Source: a virus
IMG/VR virus record: IMGVR_UViG_3300018079_000001
Span: 1-64,000 of that record
Direction: 5' to 3' (one strand)
DNA: 64,000 nucleotides
Both the position numbers and the translations under genes were made by a program. Shown here one piece after another: positions 40,773 to 61,299 of the stretch (its first letter is position 1; every line of letters begins with the position of its first letter). The notes beneath the pieces are model-generated. The model was not told the DNA's origin, did not search any database, and saw only the letters and a program-made list of their open reading frames with translations.

Positions 40773-41230
40773 GACCACTGAGGATTTTTTTCACTCCTAG
40801 CAGCAGTTTTACTTATGTGGCGTCGGGCGGTGTTGTCTTCGGTGGTGCCGCTGACACAGAGAATAACCGTGATCCGATTACCTACTCGTACACACCTACA
40901 GGCGGGCTCGCCTTTGGTGGCTCTGCGCAGGTCCAAATCTCGAAGAACTACAACGCATCGGGCGGGTTCGTTTTCGGCGGCACAGCCGATATTGTGGCCG
41001 ATGTCACGCAGATTGCCTTCGACATCTTTCAAGCGTTGAATTCACCACGAACAATATTCTTTGACATCATCTCGTCGTTGGAACCGTTGAATGGGATCGA
41101 GGCGTCGTTCGACATATACGAAGGTGTTGCGGGTGCGATGATTTCGTTTGACATCTATTCCGAGCGTCTGCGGACGGCTCGATTCTCAGAGGACGTTCAA
41201 ATGCCTGTGGCCGAAGTGGAGATTTCATAA
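40769..41230 (+). CDS. Minor tail protein with Y.ASGG..FGG.A repeats
   Basis: Three GG.VFGG.A repeats; FDI repeats. Confidence 0.5.
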   Translation: MRPLRIFFTPSSSFTYVASGGVVFGGAADTENNRDPITYSYTPTGGLAFGGSAQVQISKNYNASGGFVFGGTADIVADVTQIAFDIFQALNSPRTIFFDIISSLEPLNGIEASFDIYEGVAGAMISFDIYSERLRTARFSEDVQMPVAEVEIS

Positions 41231-43905
41231 TGGCTGAAGTTCTCATAAATCACGTCTTCAACAATCCGCAGCCGGACGATGTGGGGCCGCACACGTATGT
41301 GAAACCGACTGATTGGAATGCCTCTGAAGTGTTCGGTGGCGGCGGTACAGACGGTGACCTTGTCACGTGGAACCCGGCGTCTTCGACGAAAGCATCATTC
41401 CGTACAATCGTCGCGGGCACGGGTATTTCGGTCAGCATCACGGCTGGACAGATTCAAATTTCGACGACGGTCTCTGGGGTTGGTGGGACAGGTACGGCCG
41501 GGAAGTTGTCGAAGTGGACGGGTGTATCCTCACTCGGTGACTCTATGGTCATCGAAAGTGCAACCGGTCTCACGATCGGGGGTGTCGGACCGCACGCTTG
41601 GGGCGCAAGTACGAATGCTAACGTACAGTTCTTGATTGCAGGGACATTCTCGCCTGCTGGCACAGGCAGAGCCTTCGAGGTTGGTTCGACTCTCAGCGGC
41701 GCCTCGGGGCAGGACGAATATCTCGTCAACATCAACGGATCGGTTGTGGCTTTTGGCTCGCCCTCTCTCCTGGCGGGTTTGCGGGTCGCTCCGACCTTTA
41801 GTGGCGGTACCCCTGTCGATACGGTCGGTATTCGAGTCGCATCCTTTACGGCGATCGGCACGGTGGCTTCGGGCATCAAACTAGACGCTCCGACTGGTGC
41901 TACTACTAACTACGCTCTGTGGGCGCCCACAGGAAACGTGCAGTTCGATGGTTCGATCGTTGCGGCCGGGAACGCGGCGAAGACTGTACGGACTGACTTC
42001 CAGATAGAGTCAAACTCCGGGCGCGGGAACTTCTTTGTTCAGGGTTCGGCGGACGGCGGCACCCACGCAGGCATTGGTCGAGCAGTGAAATTCATTGCGG
42101 CTGCTACGACCGCGTTCCCGTTTGTCATCTCTCACAGCGCGGCGCAGCCGGTCGTGTTCGGGACAAGCGACACAGAGAGAATGCGGATTGACAGCGCAGG
42201 GTCTTGGACCCTCAGCATTGCCGGGCCGCACGCCATCGGTGGCACTGTCGTTACTGGCACGCAGCTAACCTTGAAGGGTACATTTAGCCCGGGTGTCTTC
42301 GAGGTACGCGGACTAGAAGTAGCAATGTCACTCCAAGCAGCGTCAAATCTTGACGTATACGGATTGGTGCTGAGTCCTACCCTGATCGAATCGGGAGCAG
42401 GTACACACCCCAACCTTGCGGCTCTTAAAGTCGCTCCTTCTGTAACTGGCAATATTGCAAACGTCACCGATCTTTCTGGTATTTTGGTCAACACTTTCGT
42501 CGCCGGTTCAATCGGCACCACCACCAACGCGTCTGGCATCAAGATCAACGCTGCTCCTACAGGCGCGACAAACAACCGCTCATTGTGGGTAGCGGCAGGT
42601 AGTGTTGAAATCACTTCAGCCGGATCGCACGCTATTGGTGGTGTGATTAACGATGGGGTTGGATTCTATATCAGAGGCACATTCGCGTCGGCGCAGTCCT
42701 TCGCGCGGGCTTTGCAAGTAGATCAAACCCTAACCGCTACCGGGGACAACGGCAGCCTGGTTGGCCTCTATATAAATCCAGTGCTGACAGAACGAGCAGC
42801 CGGTACGCACCCAATTCTGGCGGGTATCTTCGTTCAACCGACCGTTATAGCCGGTGCCGCAGCAACAACTCTATTCGCGGGCATTCATGTCGCCGCCCTG
42901 GTAGCTCAAAGCGGGACGAGTGCCGCAGCCTCTCTGAATATCGACAGTGAACCGACCGGAGCTACTACCAACTATGCATTACGTGTCCAGTCCGGTAAGA
43001 CTCTCCTAGTAGGTCAGACCGCCGTAGGGTCTCTTGGTGGTGGCGACGCGCAGTTTACACTCGCTGGTGCGTGGACCGGAACAACCCAAACAGAAATGAT
43101 GCGAGCGTCTACAACGCTGACTGCTGTAGTGGGGGCGGGGGCTTTCGGACTTATCTTCGTCCCAACATTCGTCGAGGCAGGCTCAGGCACACACAGTCAG
43201 CTTACCGGCATCTATGTGGCCCCGACGTTCACGAACGGTGCCGGAGCGACCACGAATATTTTCGGTATCAATATCGACATGGGCGCAGTCGGAGCGATTG
43301 CCCCGACTACCGCCGCTGCGCTGCGCATTGCGGCCCCGACCGGCGCGACGAACAACTATGCGATCCTGGTAGCATCGGGCCTCACCTTGCTTGGCGGCGA
43401 CCTGACTATCACTAAGACTGCCCCGGTCCTGACGATCGAGGGCTCGGGCGTCACTTCGGCCTTCGAAGTTTGGCGGACGAACGGCACCGACCGCTGGTCT
43501 GTAGGAGTGGCTTCGGGAGCCACCGACTTGTTATTTCAAGCGGGCAGCCCTGGCGCGACCGCCTTTCTGACATTGACGAATGCCGGTAACATCGCACTCT
43601 TCGCGGCCGGTTCGTTCGGTAGCGGCACCCTGGTGCTGTTTGTCGGCAACGCGACGACTGCACCGACGACAAATCCGACTAGCGGCGGCATCCTATACTC
43701 GGAGGCGGGCGCAGGGAAGTGGCGCGGTAGCGGCGGCACAGTGACAACCTTCGGCCCTGCCGAACCGCATTGTCCGACGTGCGGTAACGACTTTATGCAT
43801 GAGTGGGAGAATGAGCGGACCGGCTACTTGGCGGTCTGCATGTCATGCTTGACTGACGAGATTGGCGCGCGGTCGTGGATCATCAAGCGCGCGGGAAGGG
43901 CATAA
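41230..43905 (+). CDS. Tail fibre protein with internal repeats and C-terminal Zn-finger-like motif
   Basis: Gly/Thr/Ala-rich; PTGAT.NY repeats; ERMRIDSAG; HCPTC..VCMSC. Confidence 0.75.
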   Translation: MAEVLINHVFNNPQPDDVGPHTYVKPTDWNASEVFGGGGTDGDLVTWNPASSTKASFRTIVAGTGISVSITAGQIQISTTVSGVGGTGTAGKLSKWTGVSSLGDSMVIESATGLTIGGVGPHAWGASTNANVQFLIAGTFSPAGTGRAFEVGSTLSGASGQDEYLVNINGSVVAFGSPSLLAGLRVAPTFSGGTPVDTVGIRVASFTAIGTVASGIKLDAPTGATTNYALWAPTGNVQFDGSIVAAGNAAKTVRTDFQIESNSGRGNFFVQGSADGGTHAGIGRAVKFIAAATTAFPFVISHSAAQPVVFGTSDTERMRIDSAGSWTLSIAGPHAIGGTVVTGTQLTLKGTFSPGVFEVRGLEVAMSLQAASNLDVYGLVLSPTLIESGAGTHPNLAALKVAPSVTGNIANVTDLSGILVNTFVAGSIGTTTNASGIKINAAPTGATNNRSLWVAAGSVEITSAGSHAIGGVINDGVGFYIRGTFASAQSFARALQVDQTLTATGDNGSLVGLYINPVLTERAAGTHPILAGIFVQPTVIAGAAATTLFAGIHVAALVAQSGTSAAASLNIDSEPTGATTNYALRVQSGKTLLVGQTAVGSLGGGDAQFTLAGAWTGTTQTEMMRASTTLTAVVGAGAFGLIFVPTFVEAGSGTHSQLTGIYVAPTFTNGAGATTNIFGINIDMGAVGAIAPTTAAALRIAAPTGATNNYAILVASGLTLLGGDLTITKTAPVLTIEGSGVTSAFEVWRTNGTDRWSVGVASGATDLLFQAGSPGATAFLTLTNAGNIALFAAGSFGSGTLVLFVGNATTAPTTNPTSGGILYSEAGAGKWRGSGGTVTTFGPAEPHCPTCGNDFMHEWENERTGYLAVCMSCLTDEIGARSWIIKRAGRA

Positions 43906-43911
43906 AAAGCC

Positions 43912-44277
43912 ATGGCTTCTCTGGATAGGAAAGTTGCAGCGCTTCAAACGACCGATGCCGTGCAGGTGAGTGCGTTCACGTTCGCGGTGGCTGATGACAC
44001 TGTCGTTTCGATCACGGCCAAGGTGACAGCCCTGCAATCGGGACAGGGAACCGGAAAGTCCTTCTGGCTATTCGGCTCAGCCAGGAAGGCGGGGGCGGCG
44101 GCAGCGGTCTTGCTAGGAGCCGCCTTGGCTATCGTCACTGCGCAGGGAGACGCAGGGGCGGTGTTGTGGGATGCAGTCATCGACCTGAGTTCTCCTAACC
44201 TTAGGATTAGAGTCACAGGCGTAGCCGCGACCACGATCAATTGGTTGGTCAGCGTTGACATTCACGTCGCACCCTAA
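43912..44277 (+). CDS. Fibre-associated small protein
   Basis: TTDA...IRVTGVAATTINW. Confidence 0.5.
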   Translation: MASLDRKVAALQTTDAVQVSAFTFAVADDTVVSITAKVTALQSGQGTGKSFWLFGSARKAGAAAAVLLGAALAIVTAQGDAGAVLWDAVIDLSSPNLRIRVTGVAATTINWLVSVDIHVAP

Positions 44278-44299
44278 AAAGTGAGGCCCTAGAGGCTCC

Positions 44300-46102
44300 A
44301 TGGCGACCGCATTTCAGTTAAACGCATTCCAGAACCCGGAGACGTACGACCACTTTGGGTTTCAGGTTTCAGTCACGCCCATTGTAGGGCCTGATGGAAT
44401 CGCCAGCGCGTTCACTATTGACCAATCAGTACAGATGGCGTCTGACCAGTGGGAGTTGGCACTCACTTCTTCGGAGCAGTGGCGTGCCCGTTCACGAACG
44501 AATTCGGTTGATTTGTCCACCGGTCTGATCAACGCACTCGGCGACCCTGATCTAGTCAAGCACGTCAAGGAGGGCAAGACGGACGAGTGGGAGTTAGAGT
44601 TCTTGCCGGACAAGCTGATTGGTCGCATGCGTGGGCGCGATGCGATGGCGTTTGCACTCGACACCGCACTCTTCATCTCATACGTGAGCGGCGGTGTGGC
44701 TCCTCCGGCTATCGACCCTGCGCTTCTGCCGCCCGGTCTACAGCCTATATTGGGAGTGACAGAGCGGCTCTACCTGCCGGGTCATTGGCTTGCATCCACC
44801 ATCTGCCGTGACCTGGCAACGCGAGTCGGACTCGACATAAGCTATCAGGCGCCGGAGTATGTGTTGCGGGAAGACGTGGAAGTCAACGGACCAGCCCTTG
44901 GGGCGATTCAGCAAATCATTGAGCCCTTTACCCACTTCGAGCCGTTCAAGGTTGACGTGTGGGTTGAAGGTAAGACGCTGATGATTCGTCAGCGGCAGGG
45001 ACTCGTCGAGAGTCCTGGGCCGCTCGGTCCGCTGCCGGGCACGTTGAACACGGTTTCCATCGGTGATTTGCGGGCGAACAGTCTAACGATTCGTGCACAC
45101 TTTCTCGACTACATCCGTATCTTTCGGGCACTTGGTGCCGTGTTGGATTGTAGTGCGAGTAGCGCGAACAGGACGATAGGCATAAGAGATCAATTCACGG
45201 CTGGTGACTTCCGCACTACCATCGCCAAGGAAGTTCGTGTTCTTGACAAAGCGGACATGGGCTCGCAGACCGATGTTGTAGACCTGCGAAACGCCCACAT
45301 GGTGTCCCGTGAAACTGTAGTGCATCTTCAGGACCCTTTGATTCTCGACGCGAATTGCCGCATCATAAACAGTCCACTAGACCGGGGCTCCCAAACACTG
45401 CTCGAAGAGGAAATCCAAGAGACGTTTGAAGGGCTGACTACTACTGCCTTTCGACAGACGAAACGCATTACGGTGACTAACGTGTACGACAACAACAACT
45501 TCATGACCGGGCAGGACACCGTCACTGAGGAACGAGATGCGACCGATCCCGCGTCGCAGCTTCAGGTAACTAAGCGCGAAAGCCAAGTCTTCAGCGACAA
45601 CGGTCCTAAAATGTGGGGGGCGCGTGCGACGAAATGGTCAATCGACAGCGACGGTACATCATCTGTTGATTCTGTGCAGTCGGCTCCTGGTAGCGGTGTT
45701 CGTCCTGGTGGTCCCGGTCGTGCACCCGTAGAGACAGCGACAGATTCACAGCGAGCGTTCAAGGCGGCGATCATTGACAATTTACCAGGGGCTAAGGATT
45801 TTTCCCTGAAGAACGACAACCTGAAGCAGGACCAAATCGACATGATCTATAATCAGGCGGTCGCGTCATCGGGGGCGCAGGAGTACGAAGTCCAGTTCGT
45901 CGCCGCGCAGATTCCCTGGATCAAGAAAGGGCAGATGCTCAAGATCACCGGCCTGGTGTACGAAGACGGAGTGACGCCTGTGGATTTGCCTAACATGCTC
46001 GTTCTCGACACCAGAATTGTCCACACAGAAGAGTCGTCGAATCCGACTTCGCTTGTGCAAATAAAAGCGGTCTTTTGGTCGAAGACGTGGGGGCAGGGAT
46101 AA
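44300..46102 (+). CDS. Baseplate hub / central tail tip protein (putative)
   Basis: MRGRDAMAFALD, ICRDLA..VGL hub-like pattern. Confidence 0.55.
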   Translation: MATAFQLNAFQNPETYDHFGFQVSVTPIVGPDGIASAFTIDQSVQMASDQWELALTSSEQWRARSRTNSVDLSTGLINALGDPDLVKHVKEGKTDEWELEFLPDKLIGRMRGRDAMAFALDTALFISYVSGGVAPPAIDPALLPPGLQPILGVTERLYLPGHWLASTICRDLATRVGLDISYQAPEYVLREDVEVNGPALGAIQQIIEPFTHFEPFKVDVWVEGKTLMIRQRQGLVESPGPLGPLPGTLNTVSIGDLRANSLTIRAHFLDYIRIFRALGAVLDCSASSANRTIGIRDQFTAGDFRTTIAKEVRVLDKADMGSQTDVVDLRNAHMVSRETVVHLQDPLILDANCRIINSPLDRGSQTLLEEEIQETFEGLTTTAFRQTKRITVTNVYDNNNFMTGQDTVTEERDATDPASQLQVTKRESQVFSDNGPKMWGARATKWSIDSDGTSSVDSVQSAPGSGVRPGGPGRAPVETATDSQRAFKAAIIDNLPGAKDFSLKNDNLKQDQIDMIYNQAVASSGAQEYEVQFVAAQIPWIKKGQMLKITGLVYEDGVTPVDLPNMLVLDTRIVHTEESSNPTSLVQIKAVFWSKTWGQG

Positions 46103-46368
46103 TGCCAGTCCCACGAGCTACGACAGCAGTTACGAAAGCCGGGGCAATAGGGACCACCACGTTTTCCTCCGGTGGAGCGGGCTGGATACTGAAGGCTGTG
46201 ATCGTGGGCAAAGTCAGCGACCAGAACAACACGTACTATCTAAATCTGAACGGGTCCATCGTGCGCGCGGAAGCCTCGATCGACGCCCCCCTTGATGTCG
46301 GGCACACAGTATGGGTAGGACCAGGACCTACCAAAGGCACGTATGTGATTCAAGGAACGGGTGCGTAA
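46102..46368 (+). CDS. Small OB-fold-like tail protein
   Basis: G.V......Y.L.L.G....A.....L.VG..VWV. Confidence 0.5.
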   Translation: MPVPRATTAVTKAGAIGTTTFSSGGAGWILKAVIVGKVSDQNNTYYLNLNGSIVRAEASIDAPLDVGHTVWVGPGPTKGTYVIQGTGA

Positions 46369-48602
46369 TGCCCGCGCCGAGAGCGATCACTCAGATACAG
46401 GAAGCCAGAGTTGGCACAAAGATCACGAAGGAAGTGGTCGAAGGAGTGCAGGGCAACCGCTACCGCATACACGGTGTGTGGGTGCCTGGCGCAGATACGC
46501 AGGCAAAAGTAGGGGATGTTGTGCACGTGCAGTGGTTGACTCATACGCGTGAGCTGGATACCCCACTCAGGATCGTCAGCTACAATGTCAGACGCGGCAG
46601 TGTGTTCTTACCTTCGGAGGAGGGACTAGCACTCGTCGAAGAGTTGTTCGTGGACGTACCTACTGGAGAGGTTTACTTCAGGAACAGCAAACAAATCACA
46701 AAACTCAAAGTTCGTGAGTTGCTCCCGCGCGATCCCGACTACGTGCAGTTCGGAATTGACGGCGTGTATTTTGTTGTCAGAACTTCAACACCGTTTACGC
46801 CCGGCAGCTACACAATCGGGCAGACGCCTCTCTATCATATCTTCAAACTGAACCGAACAAGCGGTACAAAACACCTGTCTGCCACGGCCGTCGCGACGTT
46901 CGTGCGCACGGAGAGTCCCGTCGCGAGTAATCTGGCCTTAGTTGACGTACGTCTCGTCGGGGCAATGACCGGGTCGTCGAAATGGGCTCAGGGAACCACA
47001 GTCCATCCAGGCGGAATCGGGGATTCAACAGGGACCAGCATCAGCGATATATCCGCTTCGGCTTCGCAGGACATCACTCGAACCATCCATTTGAATGTAG
47101 CCAATCACGACGGAACCAGTCCGTTCTTCTTCAAAAGTCAAACTATTGACGAAGTGCATGTAAACGAGGCGGGGGATCTGCTCATTGTCTTGAGTGTTCA
47201 AGTAGACCTCTGCATGAACAAAGAACACGGCATTGGTATCATCAACCCGCTGACCGGCCTCGTCGGCACCCAAAAACTTTATGTAGAAGGCGCAGAGTGC
47301 GTCTTCACCCCAACACTAGAAGACTTCGGTGTCGCTGATTCTGATTTCTCGTACCCGATCGCCAGGTCTCATGTCTTCGTAATCAATAACACGCTTGGGG
47401 TCATTCTCTTCCGTTCCTGTCCGCCGATAATCACGAAAACCGTCACCTCAGAATACCACCAGTTTCGCGGAGCACAAACCCACCTTTTTGATTCACTAGG
47501 CGCGGAGTTGTGCGGAATAGCTCGTTTCGATCCGGAAGTTTGGACTGGAAGTGATGCAGGAGCACCCACAGTCGCTTTTGGAAACATTGGGGTTCACGGT
47601 CATCTTGGCAAGTCTATTGATGGTTGGGATACGCGCTTAACCTTCATCGGAAACCCGGCGACCTTTTTCACCACGGTAGACATTGCTGACAGTAAATCTT
47701 TAGAAATGGCATACGGGCCAAGTGGCGCATTTCCTCAGGGAGGACTCAAAGTCACTTACAACCGCACTCTTCGACAAATCAATCACATTATCCAGTGGGA
47801 GATCGCCGGGAGGTTTATCCCTCGGCTCGTCAAGGACAAGGCGGGTGTCGGAACTGTCTTTCTCCGCGCGAGAAAGGTGATACAAGGGGTTGGAATCGCC
47901 TATGAGGTGGGCGCCTTTATGTTGGACCTAGAGACCAGTGTGCTCACCACCATCCACCCGATGACCGCCAGCCCGGTCGGAGGCCAGTTCATCGGCAGCG
48001 ACATCAAAGTCGGGTTCGATGACATAACATTCCCTTGGCTGGACTATGTTTCAGCACAGAACGCGACGGCGCACGAAATCCTGATGCGTGTACGGTACGC
48101 GCCGGACGCGACAAATGTGACAGACGCGATCGAAGTATACAATCGCGACACAGAAGTTCTTCGAGTGTTGGACACGGTCACAACAGTGCAAGGAGACGAG
48201 ACGCATCTACCACCAGACCCCGCGCTCGCTCCGATTCTGGCGTGGACCAAACGACAATTCGCGCTTCTACGTCCTGACTTTACGTTTTGGGCCGCTGACG
48301 CGGATATGGACCCGACTGAACAAATCTTTCCTGCACCAGCCATAGATGCGGAGAAAGACGCGGACATTTTCCTGGACATCAAAAAAGCAAACGTACCAGG
48401 CTCGACTCTTACGATGGGAGTACGACCGAAAGAGTTTCGTGATGGTTCAGTTCCTAGAACCGCTGGAAAGAGAAAAAAGCTACCGACGACAACGCCGCCT
48501 CCTCTTCTCGTACCGAAGAGGCAGAACGTCGTCAGAGACTCTAACGAGCAGCAGGAAATTTATCCTGGGCCGTCGTTCAGAACAACCAAAGCAGGGAGCT
48601 AA
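46368..48602 (+). CDS. Large tail tip / receptor-binding protein (putative)
   Basis: Beta-rich; N-terminal OB-like segment; end of the tail module. Confidence 0.5.
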   Translation: MPAPRAITQIQEARVGTKITKEVVEGVQGNRYRIHGVWVPGADTQAKVGDVVHVQWLTHTRELDTPLRIVSYNVRRGSVFLPSEEGLALVEELFVDVPTGEVYFRNSKQITKLKVRELLPRDPDYVQFGIDGVYFVVRTSTPFTPGSYTIGQTPLYHIFKLNRTSGTKHLSATAVATFVRTESPVASNLALVDVRLVGAMTGSSKWAQGTTVHPGGIGDSTGTSISDISASASQDITRTIHLNVANHDGTSPFFFKSQTIDEVHVNEAGDLLIVLSVQVDLCMNKEHGIGIINPLTGLVGTQKLYVEGAECVFTPTLEDFGVADSDFSYPIARSHVFVINNTLGVILFRSCPPIITKTVTSEYHQFRGAQTHLFDSLGAELCGIARFDPEVWTGSDAGAPTVAFGNIGVHGHLGKSIDGWDTRLTFIGNPATFFTTVDIADSKSLEMAYGPSGAFPQGGLKVTYNRTLRQINHIIQWEIAGRFIPRLVKDKAGVGTVFLRARKVIQGVGIAYEVGAFMLDLETSVLTTIHPMTASPVGGQFIGSDIKVGFDDITFPWLDYVSAQNATAHEILMRVRYAPDATNVTDAIEVYNRDTEVLRVLDTVTTVQGDETHLPPDPALAPILAWTKRQFALLRPDFTFWAADADMDPTEQIFPAPAIDAEKDADIFLDIKKANVPGSTLTMGVRPKEFRDGSVPRTAGKRKKLPTTTPPPLLVPKRQNVVRDSNEQQEIYPGPSFRTTKAGS

Positions 48603-49125: not shown

Positions 49126-50607
49126 CTGGACTCTTCTACTATTGAAGTCGGACCTGTGTGGGCTCGGTTGCGTGGACCTGTCGGACAGGTGAACTACGTC
49201 CGCGAGTCTCTGACGCTCGACACGCCCGGTGTCGAGTACATGCGATGGAAGGTCGGTGACGGCAAGACGCGCTTCCTGCGTCGCGGTGATGTTTTTCTGT
49301 CTGGCCTCACGTGGCGCGTGGCGCAGATTCTTGTCGGGGGCGGCTACCCGATGCCCACCGTGAAGTGGCCGCTTGTCATGGAGCGCAAACCGTGGACGCC
49401 AACACCGCTCGACACGCGCGGGTACCAGGAGCCCGCTGTCGTGAAGATGGTGCGAGCGCGTCGTATGGGTGTGCAATCACCAACTGGTTCGGGCAAGACG
49501 ATGATTGGCGTCGAGGCTGCGCGTCGCATCGGGCACCGCACGCTGTGGCTCACACACCGAAAGGAACTGTTGGCGCAGACAGCCGACGTATTCCGTGACA
49601 GCCTCGGCATCGTGCCAGGTATAGTTGGGGCGGGCAAGGATTTCGAAGGCGACGGCCGTCTCGTGATCGCATCGGTGCAGACGCTCGCGCGCATGCTCGA
49701 TAAGAAGCGTGGGGCTCCTGACACAGTAAAGCCGTGGCTCGCTGACTTCGGCTGCGTCATCGGAGACGAAGGGCACCACGCATCGGCGCCGACGTGGCAG
49801 GACATCTTCGAAGCATGCACGAACGCCAACTACCGTTTCGTTCTCTCCGCGACACTCGACACCGGCAATGAAGTGAGCAACTGGAAGATCGAGGGTGCGA
49901 CCGGACCGACATACATCGTCGCCGAGACAGCGGACCTGGCAAGGCAAGGCTTCCTCGCCATGCCCCACGTGATCGTTCTTCGAGTGCCCACTGACACTTA
50001 CCCGTCATACGAAGAGATCAGGGATGTTGTCTGCCCTGGCTGGCAAGCCAACCCTCGCGCCTTGCGCTCCCTTGGGGCCAGGCTATTCACCGAGACGTAC
50101 GAACGTGGCATCATGAACAATGGAGCCCGCAACAGCATGGTCGTTCTAACGGCTGTTCAGCACGCGACTAGACAGGAAAAAGTTCTCGTGCTATGCTCAA
50201 GGGTTCCCCATGCGGCGGCTCTCATGGACGATGCACGACGCCTGAACCCCTGCCCCGTGTATGTACTCGACGGCGGGTGTAACGACCTGACACGACAGGC
50301 GACCCTGAACCTGTTCAAGCGTGGAGCCGGCGCAATCCTGTTCGCCACACCGTTTTTCCGAGAGGGAGTTGACATACCACAGATCGACGTGGGGGTACTG
50401 GCAGGTGGTGGGCTCTCCGACGTGGCCGTGACTCAGGGGCTCGGGCGGGTGCTTCGACCACGACCCGACAAGGCTGAGGTTCTCTGGTACGACTTCATGG
50501 ACGGCGGGGCTCTGACCGACCGCCCCGAGAAGGACTACCTTCGGGTACACTCCGAGTCGCGCCTGGCACTCTACACAACTTCAGGCTTCAAGGTGGAGAC
50601 TCGCTAA
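49126..50607 (+). CDS. Superfamily 2 DNA helicase (probable CTG start at 49126; GTG 49156 alternative)
   Basis: SPTGSGKT, DEGHH, LSAT, REGVDIP, QGLGRVLR. Confidence 0.9.
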   Translation: MDSSTIEVGPVWARLRGPVGQVNYVRESLTLDTPGVEYMRWKVGDGKTRFLRRGDVFLSGLTWRVAQILVGGGYPMPTVKWPLVMERKPWTPTPLDTRGYQEPAVVKMVRARRMGVQSPTGSGKTMIGVEAARRIGHRTLWLTHRKELLAQTADVFRDSLGIVPGIVGAGKDFEGDGRLVIASVQTLARMLDKKRGAPDTVKPWLADFGCVIGDEGHHASAPTWQDIFEACTNANYRFVLSATLDTGNEVSNWKIEGATGPTYIVAETADLARQGFLAMPHVIVLRVPTDTYPSYEEIRDVVCPGWQANPRALRSLGARLFTETYERGIMNNGARNSMVVLTAVQHATRQEKVLVLCSRVPHAAALMDDARRLNPCPVYVLDGGCNDLTRQATLNLFKRGAGAILFATPFFREGVDIPQIDVGVLAGGGLSDVAVTQGLGRVLRPRPDKAEVLWYDFMDGGALTDRPEKDYLRVHSESRLALYTTSGFKVETR

Positions 50608-50620
50608 TGATCGGAAGAGC

Positions 50621-51493
50621 ATGACCCGCTACTTCTGCAAGGACTGCGGTGCACGTCAGGGAAGCAAGCGCGAGTTGAATGAGCACGTGTGTCGAAAGCG
50701 GGTCAGGAATGAGATACCCGAGGGTCAGGAACTACCGCCAGTTGGGGTCAGGAATTTGACCCAACCACTACAGGAGGGGGTCAGGAACCTGACCCTTGGT
50801 GGGTCAGGAATCGGGTCAGGAAATGAAATCCTGACCCGAGAATTATCTAATGAAGACGATACGTTGTCTAATGGCGCGGGGGTCAGGAATGATGAAAGTC
50901 GTTGTCCTCCTCTTCTTGATCTCTCTAAAGAGAGAGGAACGCACACGGGTCAGGAGTGGTGTGCGATCTCTGATCCTGAGCCGATCAAAAGTGCCCACGC
51001 CCGAGAGCAGGAAGCCATCGCATACGTCTCGTCTCGGACGGAGTACCTGACAGCGTGGGAGAGATCATTCTTTATTGGGGTTCAATTCACAAACCAGACT
51101 CTATCGAGCAAGCAGAAGTTGACCCTGTTCGAGATCGAAGCCAAGATCAAGAGTCATGAGCATGGACTCGAAGAGTGGCGTGAGGCTGACGCACGGGCTC
51201 AGCACCCTCTGAAGAAGCTACAGCCCGATCACCCGAAGGCTGACTGCAAGTATTGCCAGGCCGAGGCTGAATCAGCCGTTCAGGCCAAAGCCGATTTCGA
51301 GGAAGACATGGCCGAGTTGCTTGTGCTCGGGGAAGAGATCAAGGTCCGTCGTGCCCGTGAGGCCCTACAAGCCTCTAGGACGCGTCCAGGACACCGACCC
51401 GCTGGTAGGACCCTCCTGGACTCCTCAAAGCGGCGCATTACCCCCAATCCGCCCCGATTTGCCCCCAAGGAAGAGGGACCCGCCAATGCCTGA
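50621..51493 (+). CDS. Hypothetical replication-associated protein containing iteron array
   Basis: N-terminal C2HC-type finger (CKDC..H.C); lies between two helicases. Confidence 0.55.
   Translation: MTRYFCKDCGARQGSKRELNEHVCRKRVRNEIPEGQELPPVGVRNLTQPLQEGVRNLTLGGSGIGSGNEILTRELSNEDDTLSNGAGVRNDESRCPPLLDLSKERGTHTGQEWCAISDPEPIKSAHAREQEAIAYVSSRTEYLTAWERSFFIGVQFTNQTLSSKQKLTLFEIEAKIKSHEHGLEEWREADARAQHPLKKLQPDHPKADCKYCQAEAESAVQAKADFEEDMAELLVLGEEIKVRRAREALQASRTRPGHRPAGRTLLDSSKRRITPNPPRFAPKEEGPANA
50700..50955. repeat. Iteron-like array: 8 direct GGGTCAGGA copies plus inverted copies; putative replication origin
   Basis: Copies at 50700, 50722, 50745, 50778, 50801, 50813, 50880, 50947; inverted CCTGACCC at 50788 and 50830. 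Confidence 0.75.
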
Positions 51494-52865
51494 TCGACAG
51501 TTCACGGACGGAATCGCCCGGCTGGTCCTGGTCGCAGCGGTCTATGGCGACCTGTTGACTGCCCTGCCAGGAGCCTTCGCCCCGGACCTGTTCGGGGAGT
51601 CGAGTGCCCGCCAGAGGATCGCGGAAGCCGTCGCGCGGTACGCTGAGCAGTACCCTGGCACCCGGCCGGCGCCGGAGTTCATCGACGACCTGATCAGTAA
51701 GGATATGGCGAACCGGAGCGAAGCCGAGCAGGATGCCGTCGCTGACGAGTGGGGCTTTGTCCAGGCGGCAGACCTGCCCGAAGACACGGGCTACCTGTAT
51801 CAGCAAGTCAGGGAGTGGATCGAGTTTAGGCGGACCCGAGACGCTCTTATAGCCGCCCGGGAAGTGATGGACAAGGACGGTGGGCTCGAAGAAGCCCGGG
51901 AGATTCTAGCGAAGGTCGAGCCGCTGAAGCCGCGTATCGAGATCAAGCAGGAGATTTTCTGGCTCCGCGACGCCGAGGAACGGCTGACCCTGTGGCGCGA
52001 GGGTATCACGATGGGGGAGCGCATCCCGACCCGAATGTCAGCGTTCGATGCAGCGGTGAGCGGTGGACCGACGAAGAAAGAGGCGTGGTATTTCCTGGCC
52101 CCGCCGAAGGGGGGCAAGACGACGTTCCTGCTGAACGTCGCACGCGGTGCTGCGCGTGGTGGTTACGGGGTGTACTACAACACGTTCGAGATGCAGGGCA
52201 TGCGCACCGCGCTCCGCTTCGATCAGATGATGGCGAAGTCAAGACGCGAAGAATTGGCAGGCAAGGATGGTGAGATTGGGAACATCGCCCCCCTCGAAGC
52301 GGCGATCAAGGGCATGACGGCAATCGGGAGCGGAGAGATCGTGTTCACTCGCCGCGCAACGCAGGCGAAGAGCAGCGTGCGGCAGACGGCGCAGGACATC
52401 AAGCGGCTACGGAACGATGGCGTGCAAATCGACGTGGTCGTCTTCGACTATCTGAACATCATGGGTGGCTCGAAGAACGAGTCGGAGCTACGACGCGAGT
52501 TGTTCGGCATCTCGTATGAGATCGCGGACCTGGCGCAAGAACTGGACGTGCTTGTGTGGTCGGCGGCCCTCGTGACCCGGCAAGCCGTGGACAAGTATCC
52601 TATCCGCAAGACAGACATCGCCGAGGCGTTCGGTGTGATCGCAGCACTCGATGGTGCCGTCGCCATTTGCTCCCCGCCTATCCTCGTGGCGAACAACTTC
52701 CGCCGACTGTACATCGCAGCAGCGCGTGAAGAGCGTGACGAAGTGATGGCGGGTGACTATCTGGTCGAGTTCGATCGAATGCGTATTCGACCCGCCGACT
52801 CGCAGCGCGTGGATCAGCTACTCGAATCGACACGCAAGCGGAAGAACGGGGAGGAAACGGAATGA
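51486..52865 (+). CDS. DnaB-like (SF4) replicative helicase
   Basis: APPKGGKTTFLLNVA, TFEM, VVVFDYLNIM, LA.ELDVLVWSA, DIAEAF. Confidence 0.88.
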   Translation: MPDRQFTDGIARLVLVAAVYGDLLTALPGAFAPDLFGESSARQRIAEAVARYAEQYPGTRPAPEFIDDLISKDMANRSEAEQDAVADEWGFVQAADLPEDTGYLYQQVREWIEFRRTRDALIAAREVMDKDGGLEEAREILAKVEPLKPRIEIKQEIFWLRDAEERLTLWREGITMGERIPTRMSAFDAAVSGGPTKKEAWYFLAPPKGGKTTFLLNVARGAARGGYGVYYNTFEMQGMRTALRFDQMMAKSRREELAGKDGEIGNIAPLEAAIKGMTAIGSGEIVFTRRATQAKSSVRQTAQDIKRLRNDGVQIDVVVFDYLNIMGGSKNESELRRELFGISYEIADLAQELDVLVWSAALVTRQAVDKYPIRKTDIAEAFGVIAALDGAVAICSPPILVANNFRRLYIAAAREERDEVMAGDYLVEFDRMRIRPADSQRVDQLLESTRKRKNGEETE

Positions 52866-53881
52866 CCGACGACCGCCGACGTATCGACCTGGATAAGTGG
52901 CTTCGCACTCGCGTCAAGATTTTGAATGATTCTGGTGGGCGCGGCTTCGACACAGGAGTGCGCACGTACAATTGCCCGCTGTGCCGTGACACGAAAGGAC
53001 GCGGCTGGTCGAACGTCGCGTACTGGACGACGGGCTGTTTCAACATCGGATGCGTGGCGTGCGAGCGGCTGGAGGGTGGCGCCCTGGAATTGGCGCGACG
53101 GCTCGAAGGCATCCGTATGCGCGCCGACACGTTCATCTTGCTCAAGAACAAATTCGGTGTCGCGCGCCCGATCGAGTACAAGCCGCTCCCGCGACAGGGT
53201 GACGATTTCGTGCGCTGGCCCGAAGGCATGAAGCCGCTGGCCGGCCCTGCTGATCCGTGGCGACGAACCTATCTGAAGTTTATCGAGAAGCAGTGGGGTA
53301 TCAGTGAGGCTGACGCGGAGACGTGGGGCCTGGGCTACTGCCTGACGGGTTACTACGCGAACCGCGTCATCATCCCGATTGTGATGGACGGCGAGCCCGT
53401 CGCATTTCAGGCGCGGGCAATTGTGGACGTGAAGCCAAAGCCAAAGTACCTCACGAGCCGGCACGGCGCACAGGACGACCCGAAAGCTGAGTGCTTCAGG
53501 AGCGCGAGCGCAATCCTGTTCAACTACGATCGCGTGAACGAAGGCGATGAAGTCCTGCTAGTCGAGGGGGTGGGCGACGTGATGGGCTGGCATCGGGGCA
53601 AGCCTGATCGTAAGCCCGTGGCCGTCGCGATGCTCGGTATCAGCCTGACTCCCGAGAAGCTGAGCCTGCTCGCGGCGAAAAGCCCGAGCCGCATCATTCT
53701 CGCGGTGGACGCCGAGCCTGCCGCGCAGAAGCAAGCTGACGAGATGTTCTCGACGCTTCTCGATAATGACTTGCCCGTGGTGCTCGCGACCTGGCAGGGC
53801 GGGAAAGACGCGGGCTCAGGTGCCCTGCCAGTCGAGCGCGCGGCAACACTTCGAGACGCGGACTTGAACCGACTGCGGTAG
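52862..53881 (+). CDS. DNA primase (Zn finger + TOPRIM)
   Basis: CPLC..C..C, RVIIPI, FQAR, LFNYD, LVEGVGD, AVDAE.A, KDAG. Confidence 0.88.
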   Translation: MTDDRRRIDLDKWLRTRVKILNDSGGRGFDTGVRTYNCPLCRDTKGRGWSNVAYWTTGCFNIGCVACERLEGGALELARRLEGIRMRADTFILLKNKFGVARPIEYKPLPRQGDDFVRWPEGMKPLAGPADPWRRTYLKFIEKQWGISEADAETWGLGYCLTGYYANRVIIPIVMDGEPVAFQARAIVDVKPKPKYLTSRHGAQDDPKAECFRSASAILFNYDRVNEGDEVLLVEGVGDVMGWHRGKPDRKPVAVAMLGISLTPEKLSLLAAKSPSRIILAVDAEPAAQKQADEMFSTLLDNDLPVVLATWQGGKDAGSGALPVERAATLRDADLNRLR

Positions 53882-56458: not shown

Positions 56459-58093
56459 ATGGAACTGCTGAAAGCATTCAAGGCCGCCCGCGTGGCGGCG
56501 GTGCCGATTGTCGCCGTGTCGTGCTTCGACCCGGCCGACGTGATCAAGAAGATTCGCGCGTCGAACGAAGAGGGCGCGAAGACGCCGATCCCGCTTGTGC
56601 AGTGGGATGCAATGGACGGAATGAAGGGCCTGAACACGGCGGGCAAGGCGGCGGTAGCTGCCGTGCTGAAGGGTGACGAGAAAGACTGGCCGGGCATGAC
56701 GAGCAACCCAGGTGCCGCGCTCGGGTTCATGAGCGAGCTACCCGGCGAGCAACGCGAGGGCGGTCGGCCGGACGGTGCCATTCAAATGCGCGGTACGATC
56801 GTGTTCGCCCTGAACCTGCACAACTACTTCGAGGATCGGCCGAGCAAGGAAAACGCGCCGATCGTGCAGGGCGTGTGGAATCTGCGGGACCGGTTCAAGG
56901 CCAACCGGCGCACGCTCGTGGTGCTCGGGCCTGGCTTCAAATTTCCGGCTGAGATCGCGAATGACGTGATCAGCCTGGACGTGCCGATGCCGACCGACGA
57001 GGAACTGACCGCGATCATCGCCAAGGAAGTTTCGGGTGTCGCGGGCCTCGCTGCGCTGGACGAGAAGACGATGCAGTCCGCCGTTGATGCGGTGCGCGGG
57101 CTGCCGAGCGCGTTCACGGTCGAGCAGGTATCGCGGATGTCCATGACGAAAGAGGGCATCGCGATCGACGAGTTGTGGGAGCGGAAGATCAGTACGATGG
57201 AGATGACTTCGGGCCTGAGCGTGGACCGGGGAACCGAGACGTTCGATGATGCAGGCGGGCTGGACCAGTTTAAGACGTTCGGTCTGCGGCTGGTCAAGAG
57301 CGAGAAGTCGCCGCTTCTGTACGTGCGCATTGACGAGATCGAGAAGTTTCTCGGTGGACTCGGTGGTGGCGGTAACGCGGGCGACAACACGGGCGTGTCT
57401 CAGGATGCGCTCGGGGTGTTCCTGCGCGAGATGGAAGACAACGGCTGGAATGGCCTGATCGCACTCGGCCATGCCGGCGCGGGAAAGTCGCTGATCACGA
57501 AGGGCCTCGCGAATACCGCCTCGAAGCTGACCGGGCGGCGGGTCCTGAGTGTGGCTCTGGACCTGGGTGCGACGAAGAACAGCCTGCTCGGTAAGAGTGA
57601 AGAGAGGTTGCGCACTCTATTCAAGGTGCTCAAGGCGGTCGGGGGTAAGCGCGTGTGCTTCATCGCCACGTGTAACGACCTGGACGTGATGCCGCCTGCT
57701 CTGCGTCGGCGGTTCAAACTCGGTATGTGGATGTTCGACTTGCCGACCCGCCCGCAGAAAGACGCAATCTGGAAGATCAACCTGACGAAGTTTGGTCTGA
57801 AGAAGCCGGCACGGCTGCCGGACGATACGGACTGGACTGGCGCAGACATTCGTAACGTGTGTGAGCAGGCCGATCTGCTTGGTTGCTCGCTGGACGAGGC
57901 GTGCAACTACGTCGTATTCGTCGCGAAGAACGACCCGGACAGCATCTCGCGTCTTCGGGCCAAGGCGGACGGGAAGTACCTGGACGCCAACCGGCCTGGT
58001 GTGTATCGGGCCGCGCGACAGGAAGAGCTAGTGCCGAGCCTGGACGCTCCAACGCAGGGGCGAGCCAAGGTGAGCACGGACGAGGAAGTCTAA
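56459..58093 (+). CDS. Ycf46-like AAA+ ATPase with rearranged Walker motifs; ends RAKVSTDEEV
   Basis: TFDDAGGL, VRIDEIEK, GHAGAGKS, LDLG..SLLGKSE, IATCN..PPALRRRF, WTGADIRNVC. Confidence 0.85.
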   Translation: MELLKAFKAARVAAVPIVAVSCFDPADVIKKIRASNEEGAKTPIPLVQWDAMDGMKGLNTAGKAAVAAVLKGDEKDWPGMTSNPGAALGFMSELPGEQREGGRPDGAIQMRGTIVFALNLHNYFEDRPSKENAPIVQGVWNLRDRFKANRRTLVVLGPGFKFPAEIANDVISLDVPMPTDEELTAIIAKEVSGVAGLAALDEKTMQSAVDAVRGLPSAFTVEQVSRMSMTKEGIAIDELWERKISTMEMTSGLSVDRGTETFDDAGGLDQFKTFGLRLVKSEKSPLLYVRIDEIEKFLGGLGGGGNAGDNTGVSQDALGVFLREMEDNGWNGLIALGHAGAGKSLITKGLANTASKLTGRRVLSVALDLGATKNSLLGKSEERLRTLFKVLKAVGGKRVCFIATCNDLDVMPPALRRRFKLGMWMFDLPTRPQKDAIWKINLTKFGLKKPARLPDDTDWTGADIRNVCEQADLLGCSLDEACNYVVFVAKNDPDSISRLRAKADGKYLDANRPGVYRAARQEELVPSLDAPTQGRAKVSTDEEV

Positions 58094-58200
58094 CCGAGTG
58101 GAGGGTGCCCGGGCGCAAGGCAGGTAACGCGGACACCGCTGAAGGCCGAAAGCCTGAAGGCGACTAGGTGCCGCCCCGTAAACTCACAACGGAGGGAAAC

Positions 58201-58407
58201 ATGGCAGACAGTTTCGAGATTCAGATTCTCGATGACGGCACGATCAAGAGCACGACGGGTAAGGTTGGCGCGCAGAACCACCAGAGTGCCGAGGGCTTCT
58301 TCGGGATGCTGGCCCGCGTGATGGGCGGCAAGACGACCCGTAACCGTCGCGGCGAACACGCTCACGTGCACTCGCACGGTGAGGGCGAGCAACACGAGCA
58401 CGCGTAA
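58201..58407 (+). CDS. DUF2997-like small protein (His-rich tail)
   Basis: FEIQILDDGTIK...LARVMGG; adjacent to the Ycf46-like ATPase; RBS GGAGGG. Confidence 0.55.
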   Translation: MADSFEIQILDDGTIKSTTGKVGAQNHQSAEGFFGMLARVMGGKTTRNRRGEHAHVHSHGEGEQHEHA

Positions 58408-58444: not shown

Positions 58445-59389
58445 ATGAGCACGATCCCAACAACGGCAACGGTCATGGAGCAGAGCGTCGCGTTTGTCCT
58501 GGCCTTCTCACGCCCCGGCGTCAAGCGGGTCGTGCGGAAGTCGCAGGTGTCCGAGAAGAGCGAGGGCACCGACAACGCGGTTGTCGTGGATGCCGACAAG
58601 AGCATGATCAACGTCGGCAAGGAAATCATTGACTCCCCGCAACTGCGGGCGATCATCTCGCGCGATGGCGCGGTCCGCCAGTGGGTGAAGGCGCGCAGTC
58701 TGCCGAGTCCGCTGTTCAAGTCGGGTACGACGATCGTGCCGACTGTGCTCGTCGAGGCGGTGTACGAGTACCTCGAAAAGTCGAAGGCTGATCGGGACGC
58801 CGACATCGCGACGTTCCTTGAAGCCTACCCTGGCCTGGTCGAGGAAGCGAAGACGAAACTAGGGCCGCTGTTCGACGCTCGTCAATACCCCGCCGCGACG
58901 GCACTCAAAGGCGCGTTCGAGATGCGGTGGAACATCATCGAATTCGGGACGCCCGGCAAGCTGAAGACTATCAGCAAGGCTCTGTACGATAAAGAGCGCG
59001 CCAAGGCCGAGGCCGAGTGGGCGGACGCCACGTCGCAGATTCGCAACGCGCTTCGCGTGGCGATGGCGGAACTGGTCGAGCACATGATCGAGAAGCTGTC
59101 GTCGGACAACGACGGCAAGGCGAAGACGTTCCGCGATAGCATGGTCAAGAACCTGACCGAGTTTTCCGATTTGTTCAACGCACGCAACCTGACGGGCGAC
59201 TCGGAGTTGGCAGCACTCGTCGAGAAGGCGCAGAAGGTCATGAGCGGCGTGGACGCGAAGTCACTGCGGACTGACGCCGACATCAAGCAGCGTGTGGCTG
59301 ATGGTTTCGCGGAGATCAAGGCGAACCTCGACACGATGGTGATTGACCGCCCGACGCGGGCGTTGACGATCGCTGACGAGGAAGTCTAA
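58445..59389 (+). CDS. DUF3150-like helical protein; ends RALTIADEEV
   Basis: F...YP.LVEEAK..LG.LFD..QYP, FRDSMV.NL.EF..LF..RNLT.D.EL. Confidence 0.6.
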   Translation: MSTIPTTATVMEQSVAFVLAFSRPGVKRVVRKSQVSEKSEGTDNAVVVDADKSMINVGKEIIDSPQLRAIISRDGAVRQWVKARSLPSPLFKSGTTIVPTVLVEAVYEYLEKSKADRDADIATFLEAYPGLVEEAKTKLGPLFDARQYPAATALKGAFEMRWNIIEFGTPGKLKTISKALYDKERAKAEAEWADATSQIRNALRVAMAELVEHMIEKLSSDNDGKAKTFRDSMVKNLTEFSDLFNARNLTGDSELAALVEKAQKVMSGVDAKSLRTDADIKQRVADGFAEIKANLDTMVIDRPTRALTIADEEV

Positions 59390-59886: not shown

Positions 59887-60207
59887 ATGCCGTGTGATAG
59901 CGTCGTCCTGAACACAGTCGAATTGGACAAGGTCGGTGACCACGATCTACTCGAAAAGGCTCTGGCTGGAGAATTCGGCACCGTGCGCCGCAACGGTACG
60001 ACGATGACGTTCACGTACCAGGGACGCACAGTCACGATCCGCAACGGCCGCGCCGAGTCGAGCCTGAGCGAGAGCACGCTGCAACAATTGGTCGGCCAGG
60101 TGAAGCAGGCGTACAGCCGCGAGGCCGTGCACATGGCGGCGAAGCGGTTCGGGTGGATGATCAAACCCGGCAGGGACAAGAACAACTTCACGGTTGTGAA
60201 GAACTAG
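59887..60207 (+). CDS. DUF1257/Ycf35-like protein
   Basis: MPC...D.DLLEKAL...VKQAYS.EAV...AKRFGW. Confidence 0.6.
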   Translation: MPCDSVVLNTVELDKVGDHDLLEKALAGEFGTVRRNGTTMTFTYQGRTVTIRNGRAESSLSESTLQQLVGQVKQAYSREAVHMAAKRFGWMIKPGRDKNNFTVVKN

Positions 60208-60208
60208 C

Positions 60209-60703
60209 ATGTGGCCGGGCGAGTTTCCTGACGATGCGGGTAGTGCCAGTGGTGACTGGACTGTCCGCCTGGTTGGCCGTGCGCTGATTGAAGCCACGGC
60301 GGCGAGCACGGGTAAACCGTTCATGGCGCGGATTGTAGGACGTGACAATACGTACACGTGGCAGCGTCAGTGGCTCAAGCCGAAGTGGGAGTTTCCCGCG
60401 CGCAACGCGAACCCCGCCGCGATCGTGCGGCTGGTCCTGCCTGTGTCTGCTGTCGGCAAGTTGCCGGCTGCTCTGGACATACGGTGGGGGCCAGCGACGG
60501 GCGGCACGGGTATCGACGTGAAGAACGGACAGGCGTTTCGCTACTGCGGGTATCGTAGTCTGTTTATCCTGGACGCGGCTGGCTTGCGGCAGGCGACTGA
60601 GCAGCACGTGACGTGGCTGCTCGACGAGGGCATCGTGGTTTCCGGACCACCACGTCGTGAGCCGGGCTCGCGCCCGGTGCTGAGGTTCGATGAAGAAGTT
60701 TGA
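60209..60703 (+). CDS. Hypothetical protein; ends RPVLRFDEEV
   Basis: KPFMARIVGRD..Y.WQRQWL. Confidence 0.6.
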   Translation: MWPGEFPDDAGSASGDWTVRLVGRALIEATAASTGKPFMARIVGRDNTYTWQRQWLKPKWEFPARNANPAAIVRLVLPVSAVGKLPAALDIRWGPATGGTGIDVKNGQAFRYCGYRSLFILDAAGLRQATEQHVTWLLDEGIVVSGPPRREPGSRPVLRFDEEV

Positions 60704-60732
60704 CGGGCCAGCGGCCTGAGAAAGGGACGGCA

Positions 60733-61299
60733 ATGGCGACAACGGTAGAAAAACGACAATTCAAAAGCAGCCGCCCCGGATCGGCGGCACTGTATACCGC
60801 CGTCGTGTACGACGACGGCACCGCGTCCTGCGACTGCCCTGGCTGGCGGTTCCAGCGTTCAGGCCAGCCGCGAGGCTGCAAGCACACCGCCACCATGTTG
60901 ACCGGCACAACGGTCAAGGTGGTGACGAACGCCGAGATGGCGCGCATGGCGTTGCGTGGTGAGCAGTTCAACGTGATCAAGCGGTGGACGATTGCGCAGA
61001 GCGGCGCACAGATGGTGAGCCTGCGTATGGGGGAGAGCGCGTCTGCCGAGCAGACGGTGCGTCGGATCATGAAAGAGGATAACGCACCGCAGTCTTACCC
61101 GGCGCGACGGGATCGCTGGTCGCAGGCTGAGGGGAAGTGGGTGTCGGTGCCGAAGAAGATGACGCCCGAGATGCGCACGCCTGATCCACTGGCGGCGCGG
61201 GACTTCTTTCCGTCGAAACCGAAGCCGCAGACGACGCGGCGTGCAGAGCAGATCGAACAACCAACACGAGCACGCCTAGCGTTCGATGAAGAGGTATAG
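60733..61299 (+). CDS. SWIM zinc-finger protein; ends RARLAFDEEV
   Basis: SS....YT......SCDCPGWRF.....CKH. Confidence 0.75.
   Translation: MATTVEKRQFKSSRPGSAALYTAVVYDDGTASCDCPGWRFQRSGQPRGCKHTATMLTGTTVKVVTNAEMARMALRGEQFNVIKRWTIAQSGAQMVSLRMGESASAEQTVRRIMKEDNAPQSYPARRDRWSQAEGKWVSVPKKMTPEMRTPDPLAARDFFPSKPKPQTTRRAEQIEQPTRARLAFDEEV

Follow-up and report, generated by a model that had tools for sequence, protein, structure and literature searches.

Two exchanged segments in the predicted active domain of a phage-encoded Ycf46-like AAA+ protein

Background

AAA+ proteins are taken to carry their motifs in one fixed order, Walker A, Walker B, sensor 1, and profile models are built on that assumption. 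Here we describe a viral gene whose product departs from that order. The gene lies in the window (the whole stretch of DNA analysed, 64,000 nucleotides, positions 1 to 64,000 of IMG/VR virus record IMGVR_UViG_3300018079_000001); the source record is complete, with 101,821 bp and direct terminal repeats. It encodes a Ycf46-like protein of 544 amino acids. The closest described systems are the normal-order Ycf46-like AAA proteins of mobile elements, which have DUF1257, DUF2997 and DUF3150 neighbours and with which the phage protein shares a two-domain architecture and a DUF3150 partner. They include WDT77853.1 (hereafter P0122) on the Ca. Manganitrophus plasmid CP114559.1, chromosomal copies in Planctomycetota and phage proteins labelled 'AAA-ATPase', such as gene 97 of Mycobacterium phage Catdawg and those of Aeromonas phage HJ05 and Rhizobium phage RHph_I4. 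Identity to these proteins is 25–31% over ~400 residues, and the signatures IDEIEK, GD.G.S..LG.FL, GESE, ATCN/ATSN and WTGAEI are shared. In the normal-order core, however, Walker A is followed by pore loop 1, Walker B, alpha3 and then sensor 1, while in the phage protein the Walker B/alpha3 unit comes first. The C-termini differ as well, being mostly RVQL-like in the normal-order proteins and R...DEEV-like in the family of the phage protein.

One deposited phage protein has the same permuted order: gp103 of Tunturiibacter phage Tunturi_3 ('ATPase', XOB77284.1), a diverged relative from a phage of an Acidobacteriota host, with 30% identity over 95% of the query and a record that carries no annotation of the permutation. 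In predicted overall shape, the phage protein is like the tandem AAA proteins p97/Cdc48, Rix7/NVL and Drg1 and the single-domain proteins Vps4 (Z score 16.8), spastin and katanin. Proteins of the p97 and Vps4 types have the standard chain order and a D1 that is active or nucleotide-binding, whereas the phage protein has a degenerate D1 and a permuted D2-like core. Altered motif order with a retained fold and active site is known from other P-loop NTPases, the circularly permuted GTPases of the YlqF/YjeQ type. Those arose by circular permutation with new domain termini; the phage AAA+ protein differs in that internal segments are exchanged and the domain ends are unmoved. A literature search found no account of AAA+ proteins in which Walker B precedes Walker A, nor of the DUF3150/DUF1257/DUF2997 module. 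The protein is clearly an AAA+ ATPase by class, but its chain topology was not found described for that class.

Exchange of two segments in the active domain

The original prediction, made from the sequence of the window, had placed a Walker B motif upstream of Walker A and proposed that two adjacent segments had traded places with all catalytic residues kept. Both motifs lie exactly where it had put them. The gene was divided as follows, with the basis of each assignment in brackets.

56459-58093, plus strand: whole gene, Ycf46-like AAA+ protein of two domains with a permuted active domain, 544 amino acids (open reading frame, homologs, model)
56459-57208, plus strand: degenerate AAA-like N-terminal domain, residues 1-250, with neither P-loop nor Walker B (structural match to tandem AAA proteins)
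57209-57310, plus strand: linker plus helix alpha0, residues 251-284, carrying the TFDDAGGLDQFK motif (family alignment; model helix 269-280)
57311-57448, plus strand: segment B, residues 285-330, moved upstream (model strand 287-291 and helices 294-301 and 313-328; segment B hidden Markov model, HMM; co-evolving pairs)
57323-57346, plus strand: Walker B VRIDEIEK, residues 289-296 (translation, family alignment)
57449-57649, plus strand: segment A, residues 331-397, with beta1, P-loop, alpha1, beta2, the LLGKSEE pore-loop-1 region and alpha2 (phmmer; model strands 331-337 and 363-367, helices 343-358 and 379-395)
57467-57490, plus strand: Walker A GHAGAGKS, residues 337-344, with invariant K343 (translation, family alignments)
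57650-57676, plus strand: sensor-1 strand KRVCFIATCN, residues 397-406, with invariant N406, directly after alpha2 (phmmer, alignments, model)
57704-57712, plus strand: arginines R416-R418 in the second region of homology (in alignments R418 is invariant and R417 at least 90% conserved)
57746-58003, plus strand: helical lid subdomain with the WTGADIRNVC motif, residues 430-515 (aligns to the katanin and Rpt2 lids; model helices 431-503)
58061-58090, plus strand: C-terminal tail RAKVSTDEEV, with R535 in at least 90% of relatives (family alignments)

In segment B, the Walker B strand (287-291) leads to D292/E293, the stretch LYVRIDE being residues 287-293; a Gly-rich loop, which takes the place of pore loop 2, and helix alpha3 (GDNTGVSQDALGVFLREMEDNGW) follow. 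A near-invariant proline, P285, directly precedes the moved strand and closes the linker/alpha0 part. Downstream, CFIATCN corresponds to residues 400-406 and PPALRRRF to residues 412-419.

Three kinds of profile comparison, with Pfam, phmmer and segment HMMs, agreed that the chain is not collinear with the classic AAA family profile of Walker A, Walker B and sensor 1. The Pfam AAA model (PF00004), whose cut-off is 21.2 bits, reached 31.9 bits through partial matches, the best of which covers only profile positions 4-54, on residues 336-392. Because such profiles assume a fixed order, automatic annotation sees a partial AAA domain of ~55 residues. When the protein was searched against the PDB with phmmer, residues 329-392 matched katanin 57-114 (Walker A to alpha2) and residues 397-475 matched katanin 167-248 (sensor 1 into the lid), with the sensor-1 Asn and the second-region-of-homology arginines aligned to those of katanin and Rpt2. 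Between the two blocks, the ~50 katanin residues of the Walker B strand and alpha3 have ~4 counterparts in the query. A block with all hallmarks of this absent unit stands at residues 285-330, directly ahead of the Walker A strand.

The relation becomes clearest against P0122, whose core reads GGLENLK, GILLLGLQGCGKS, LVGESEE, CVLFIDELDK, DGGVSKHLLGTFLTWLND, VFVIATSN. In its native order the query aligned to P0122 by BLASTP with 106 bits and 107 gap columns, leaving the Walker B units of both proteins unaligned. Exchanging residues 285-330 and 331-397 in silico before the search raised the score to 158 bits (E 6e-47) and reduced the gap columns to 27, in an alignment that is nearly gapless across the whole core. 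Segment HMMs were then built from the permuted family (A, residues 331-396; B, residues 285-329). An AAA HMM alignment had been expected to give two matches out of order, and the segment HMMs did so: the order B-A was found in 371 proteins (255 database proteins, 80 of 80 viral loci and 36 genome loci) and the order A-B in 159 (121 database proteins and 38 genome loci). The domain ends, that is alpha0 on one side and sensor 1 through the lid on the other, are collinear with the normal-order relatives, and only two internal segments are exchanged. At the level of sequence, then, the rearrangement is an exchange of neighbouring internal segments and not a circular permutation.

Our reading, which we hold to be highly probable, is that the protein is a Ycf46-like AAA+ ATPase of the classic clade whose active domain carries this non-circular exchange, with a normal ATP site and a single origin. 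The segment order, its conservation, the one split from the normal-order relatives and the conserved partners are shown by the data; what we infer concerns the three-dimensional arrangement, ATPase activity, ring formation, the route of duplication and the biological role, each taken up in its place below. The chain would run alpha0-B-A-sensor 1, replacing alpha0-A-B-sensor 1, with all three breakpoints predicted to fall in loops. The new connections would be alpha0 to beta3, alpha3 to beta1 and alpha2 to beta4, each shifting by one or two strands and, as we reason, each crossing the sheet in the same direction as the one it replaced. The strands would form the usual 5-1-4-3-2 sheet, so that K343, D292/E293, N406 and R417/R418 would meet as a normal ATP site. 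As a homolog of the classic AAA proteins, the product is probably an ATP-driven, ring-forming protein remodeller or unfoldase.

Conservation of the catalytic residues

A homolog search returned 258 matches, and among the 120 listed nearly all cover 94-100% of the query. The segment order is the same throughout alignments of 31 and 114 members, the latter being 39-89% identical to the query. Invariant in the family alignments are E293, K296, G337, G340, K343, N406 and R418, and D292, E381, R385 and R417 are conserved in at least 90% of members. With a regular expression, Walker B was located 39-50 amino acids ahead of Walker A in 241 of 254 family members. A conventional Walker B after the GKS motif would have spoken for an ordinary domain; a true one after the P-loop was found in none of the 254. 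In a profile search of 1.84 billion cluster representatives (50% identity), 3,502 matches fell below 1e-30. The best 150 of these all scored above 588 bits, and 148 of the 150 matched as one full-length stretch.

The two exceptions are intein-bearing homologs, P0102 (861 amino acids) and P0142 (896 amino acids). The P0102 intein splits Walker A (GPPG|C...HN|SGKS) and the P0142 intein splits sensor 1 (FIAT|C...HN|CN). Inteins typically occupy functionally constrained sites.

It might be supposed that the fold is rewired and that the protein is a pseudo-ATPase, binding nucleotide or serving as a scaffold only, with the moved Walker B misplaced for catalysis. Activity in the family is a prediction, and the pore-loop-1 position is Leu or Val and not aromatic, both of which would suit this view. 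Nevertheless, the normal-order relatives share the non-aromatic pore loop, inteins have invaded both the P-loop and sensor 1, and E293, K343, N406 and R418 do not vary at all among the 114 aligned relatives, with D292 and R417 nearly as constant. The invariance of catalytic residues across such diverged sequences argues for an active enzyme, and we regard a pseudo-ATPase as improbable.

Predicted fold and strand order

The AlphaFold2 model, computed from the 114-sequence alignment, has a predicted local distance difference test (pLDDT) score of 92.3 and a predicted template modelling (pTM) score of 0.85. As a whole it matched tandem AAA proteins, p97 D1D2 with a Z score of 18.4 over 403 aligned residues, and because of this match the N-terminal 250 residues are taken to be a degenerate AAA-like domain. 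Such a domain is common to the normal-order relatives, and the BLASTP alignment with P0122 begins at query residue 114 and P0122 residue 81. In the C-terminal domain the model places alpha0 at 269-280, a strand at 287-291, helices at 294-301 and 313-328, a strand at 331-337, a helix at 343-358, a strand at 363-367, a helix at 379-395, a strand at 399-405, a helix at 413-418 and a strand at 423-426, followed by the lid helices. In standard AAA naming the elements after alpha0 follow one another as beta3-alpha3-beta1-alpha1-beta2-alpha2-beta4-alpha4-beta5. Against p97 D2, the C-terminal part gave a Z score of 15.9, with 195 of ~254 residues aligned at 25% identity and a root-mean-square deviation of 2.3 A. 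An aligner that depends on chain order would be expected to return such a result if all but the 45-residue moved unit superposes in the modelled fold.

Strand neighbours were sought by mean-field direct-coupling analysis of residues 250-515 in 251 members (209 effective sequences), scoring the top 300 couplings. The moved beta3 and beta4 shared 6 pairs where 0.57 were expected, and these lie in parallel register (292-404, 289-401, 291-401). Two pairs joined beta1 to beta4 (334-403), two joined beta1 to beta5 (335-426) and one joined the moved beta3 to beta2 (287-363), while the six remaining strand combinations had none in the top 300. Within the same domain, further couplings link the moved strand to alpha1 and alpha2 (290-347, 287-395, 288-358). 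These neighbours therefore give the sheet order 5-1-4-3-2, which is normal for AAA. The rewired AAA fold foreseen in the original prediction thus has indirect support, since the element order of the model and the co-evolving strand neighbours both fit a normal sheet with new connections.

The same couplings bear on another explanation, in which the DEIEK block belongs to the N-terminal domain and the C-terminal domain lacks a Walker B, giving two complementary half-sites with catalysis across domains or lost. The protein does hold two AAA-like domains. However, the N-terminal one is already complete by ~residue 250, and the block follows the GGLxxxK/alpha0 element, which opens the C-terminal domain in normal-order relatives. 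Un-swapping gives a collinear and almost gapless alignment, and beta4, alpha1 and alpha2, with which the strand co-evolves, belong to the C-terminal domain. We consider half-sites very unlikely.

Origin of the permuted order

A FastTree phylogeny, read as unrooted, was built from 64 permuted proteins, restored to normal order by alignment columns, and 54 normal-order proteins. One branch with a Shimodaira-Hasegawa-like support of 100 splits the two groups, and the order label changes once. A single exchange in a normal-order ancestor is the simplest reading because normal order is universal in the wider superfamily. The likely, or at least plausible, route is that A-B was duplicated to A-B-A-B and the outer copies were then lost, after which the permuted lineage would have spread widely in phages and prophages. 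Permutations through duplication and loss can recur, and the normal-order sample is limited, so several independent origins might be envisaged; yet the breakpoints are identical in all members and one change suffices to part all 64 permuted proteins from all 54 others, which leaves repeated origins with slightly poorer chances still than the half-sites.

Some points weigh against the highly probable reading of an active, once-permuted ATPase. ATPase activity has been ascribed by inference to permuted and normal-order module members alike. The segment HMMs found no A-B-A, B-A-B or A-B-A-B arrangement and no doubled segment among the ~530 proteins scanned, so that the duplication route is conjecture. 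The normal-order proteins in the tree were a narrow sample, the relatives of one plasmid protein plus Planctomycetota copies, and FastTree was the only tree method. The placement of strand 287-291 rests on predicted secondary structure, homology and co-evolution among ~209 effective sequences, and the signal between the moved beta3 and beta2 is weak, at one pair in the top 300.

If the exchange is as we describe, the end of alpha3 (MEDNGW, where classic AAA proteins have their inter-subunit signalling element) would lead straight into the P-loop strand, and the helix behind pore loop 1 straight into the sensor-1 strand. It is conceivable, though we find it doubtful, that the exchange was not neutral, that nucleotide state is coupled to the pore loops and neighbouring subunits unlike in every studied AAA+ motor, and that this is the first natural non-circular permutation of an ASCE core. 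Were that true, the chain order of the ancient ASCE fold would be dispensable for folding and catalysis. Judged from its sequences, a well-studied enzyme fold seems to have been rewired in nature and to be still working. The at least 371 proteins with all catalytic residues in altered order form a natural experiment on the fold's tolerance of rewiring, and the permuted and normal families, which have the same partners, make a pair for comparing folding and allostery.

Distribution

Relatives were encoded in at least 343 IMG/VR contigs and at least 238 prokaryote genome loci, and the permuted order is present in the complete chromosome of Nitrospira moscoviensis. Tunturi_3 gp103 was the only permuted match among 50,697 deposited phage records. 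By comparison, normal-order relatives occur in 94 deposited phage genomes, with hosts including Mycobacterium, Vibrio, Pseudomonas, Rhizobium, Rhodobacter and Aeromonas, and this imbalance is probably why the permuted form went unnoticed. Among the genome loci retrieved, the permuted form came mainly from Acidobacteriota (27) and Nitrospirota (5), and the normal-order form retrieved by the same patterns came mainly from Planctomycetota (34).

Misassembly had been named as a possible source of the order, and independent contigs from four other sediment metagenome runs match the region without a single difference, indel or joint; X3 (56988-58100) and X6 (57253-57775, from a 2025 study) each span the junctions at 57311, 57449 and 57650. 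An origin of the order in faulty assembly or sequencing, or a rearrangement confined to one phage genome, would be imaginable for a metagenome-derived record, but with these contigs, the B-A order in 80 of 80 viral and 36 of 36 genome loci of the family, and an isolated phage and a complete chromosome that share it, we give this explanation practically no credence.

Gene neighbourhood

The AAA gene heads a conserved module downstream of a replication block. The proteins listed here follow it in the window.

58201-58407, plus strand: 68-amino-acid protein at the DUF2997 gene position (tblastn matches in 41 of 80 viral loci)
58445-59389, plus strand: DUF3150-like partner, 314 amino acids (BLASTP match at E 1e-41 with the DUF3150 neighbour of the Manganitrophus AAA)
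59887-60207, plus strand: 106-amino-acid open reading frame, weakly DUF1257-like (BLASTP E 0.01 to a Manganitrophus DUF1257 protein; 29 of 80 viral loci)

A DUF3150-like partner was found on the same strand within 6 kb of the AAA gene in 77 of the 80 viral loci. The normal-order relatives have the same DUF3150 neighbour, and therefore the permuted ATPase has kept its relatives' partners. The Pfam DUF3150 model (PF11348) matched 15 of 42 relatives of the 314-amino-acid partner and missed the partner encoded in the window itself, even with the threshold at E 0.1; it seems to be too narrow for this phage branch. The fold model of the partner has a pLDDT of 89.6; Foldseek returned nothing below E 0.3, and a wide structure search gave only generic helical bundles with Z scores of at most 9.1. 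The 68-amino-acid protein had no Pfam match and no BLASTP match to DUF2997, and its C-terminus is His-rich (HAHVHSHGEGEQHEHA).

The AAA protein would act in an early-expressed phage module together with the DUF3150-like protein and two small proteins, and its gene marks such a module as widespread, chiefly among Acidobacteriota and Nitrospirota phages and prophages. Function databases placed it only broadly: PADLOC gave weak generic AAA matches (IetA at 2e-05) and nothing more specific, NCBIfam did likewise, and an ESM Atlas search returned AAA clusters only. PHROGs assigns it to phrog_8638, a family label that carries no function.

Upstream, the replication block (49156-53881) encodes a superfamily 2-type DNA helicase (phrog_16), a DnaB-like helicase (phrog_19) and a primase (phrog_47). 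Large open reading frames at 41230-48602 (891, 600 and 763 amino acids) had no PHROG match. Downstream, a 199-amino-acid protein (60700-61299) had a weak SWIM zinc-finger match at E 0.0056, below the Pfam cut-off, and relatives in 6 of the 80 viral loci.

It was also observed that four consecutive proteins end in R-x5-DEEV: the AAA protein (RAKVSTDEEV, 58061-58090), the DUF3150-like partner (RALTIADEEV, 59360-59389), a 164-amino-acid protein (RPVLRFDEEV, 60674-60703) and the 199-amino-acid protein (RARLAFDEEV, 61270-61299). It is possible that these endings are a shared docking or recognition tail. Across the AAA proteins, an Arg followed by an acidic C-terminus was present in 161 of 255 permuted and 12 of 121 normal-order members, the latter ending mostly in RVQL-like sequences.

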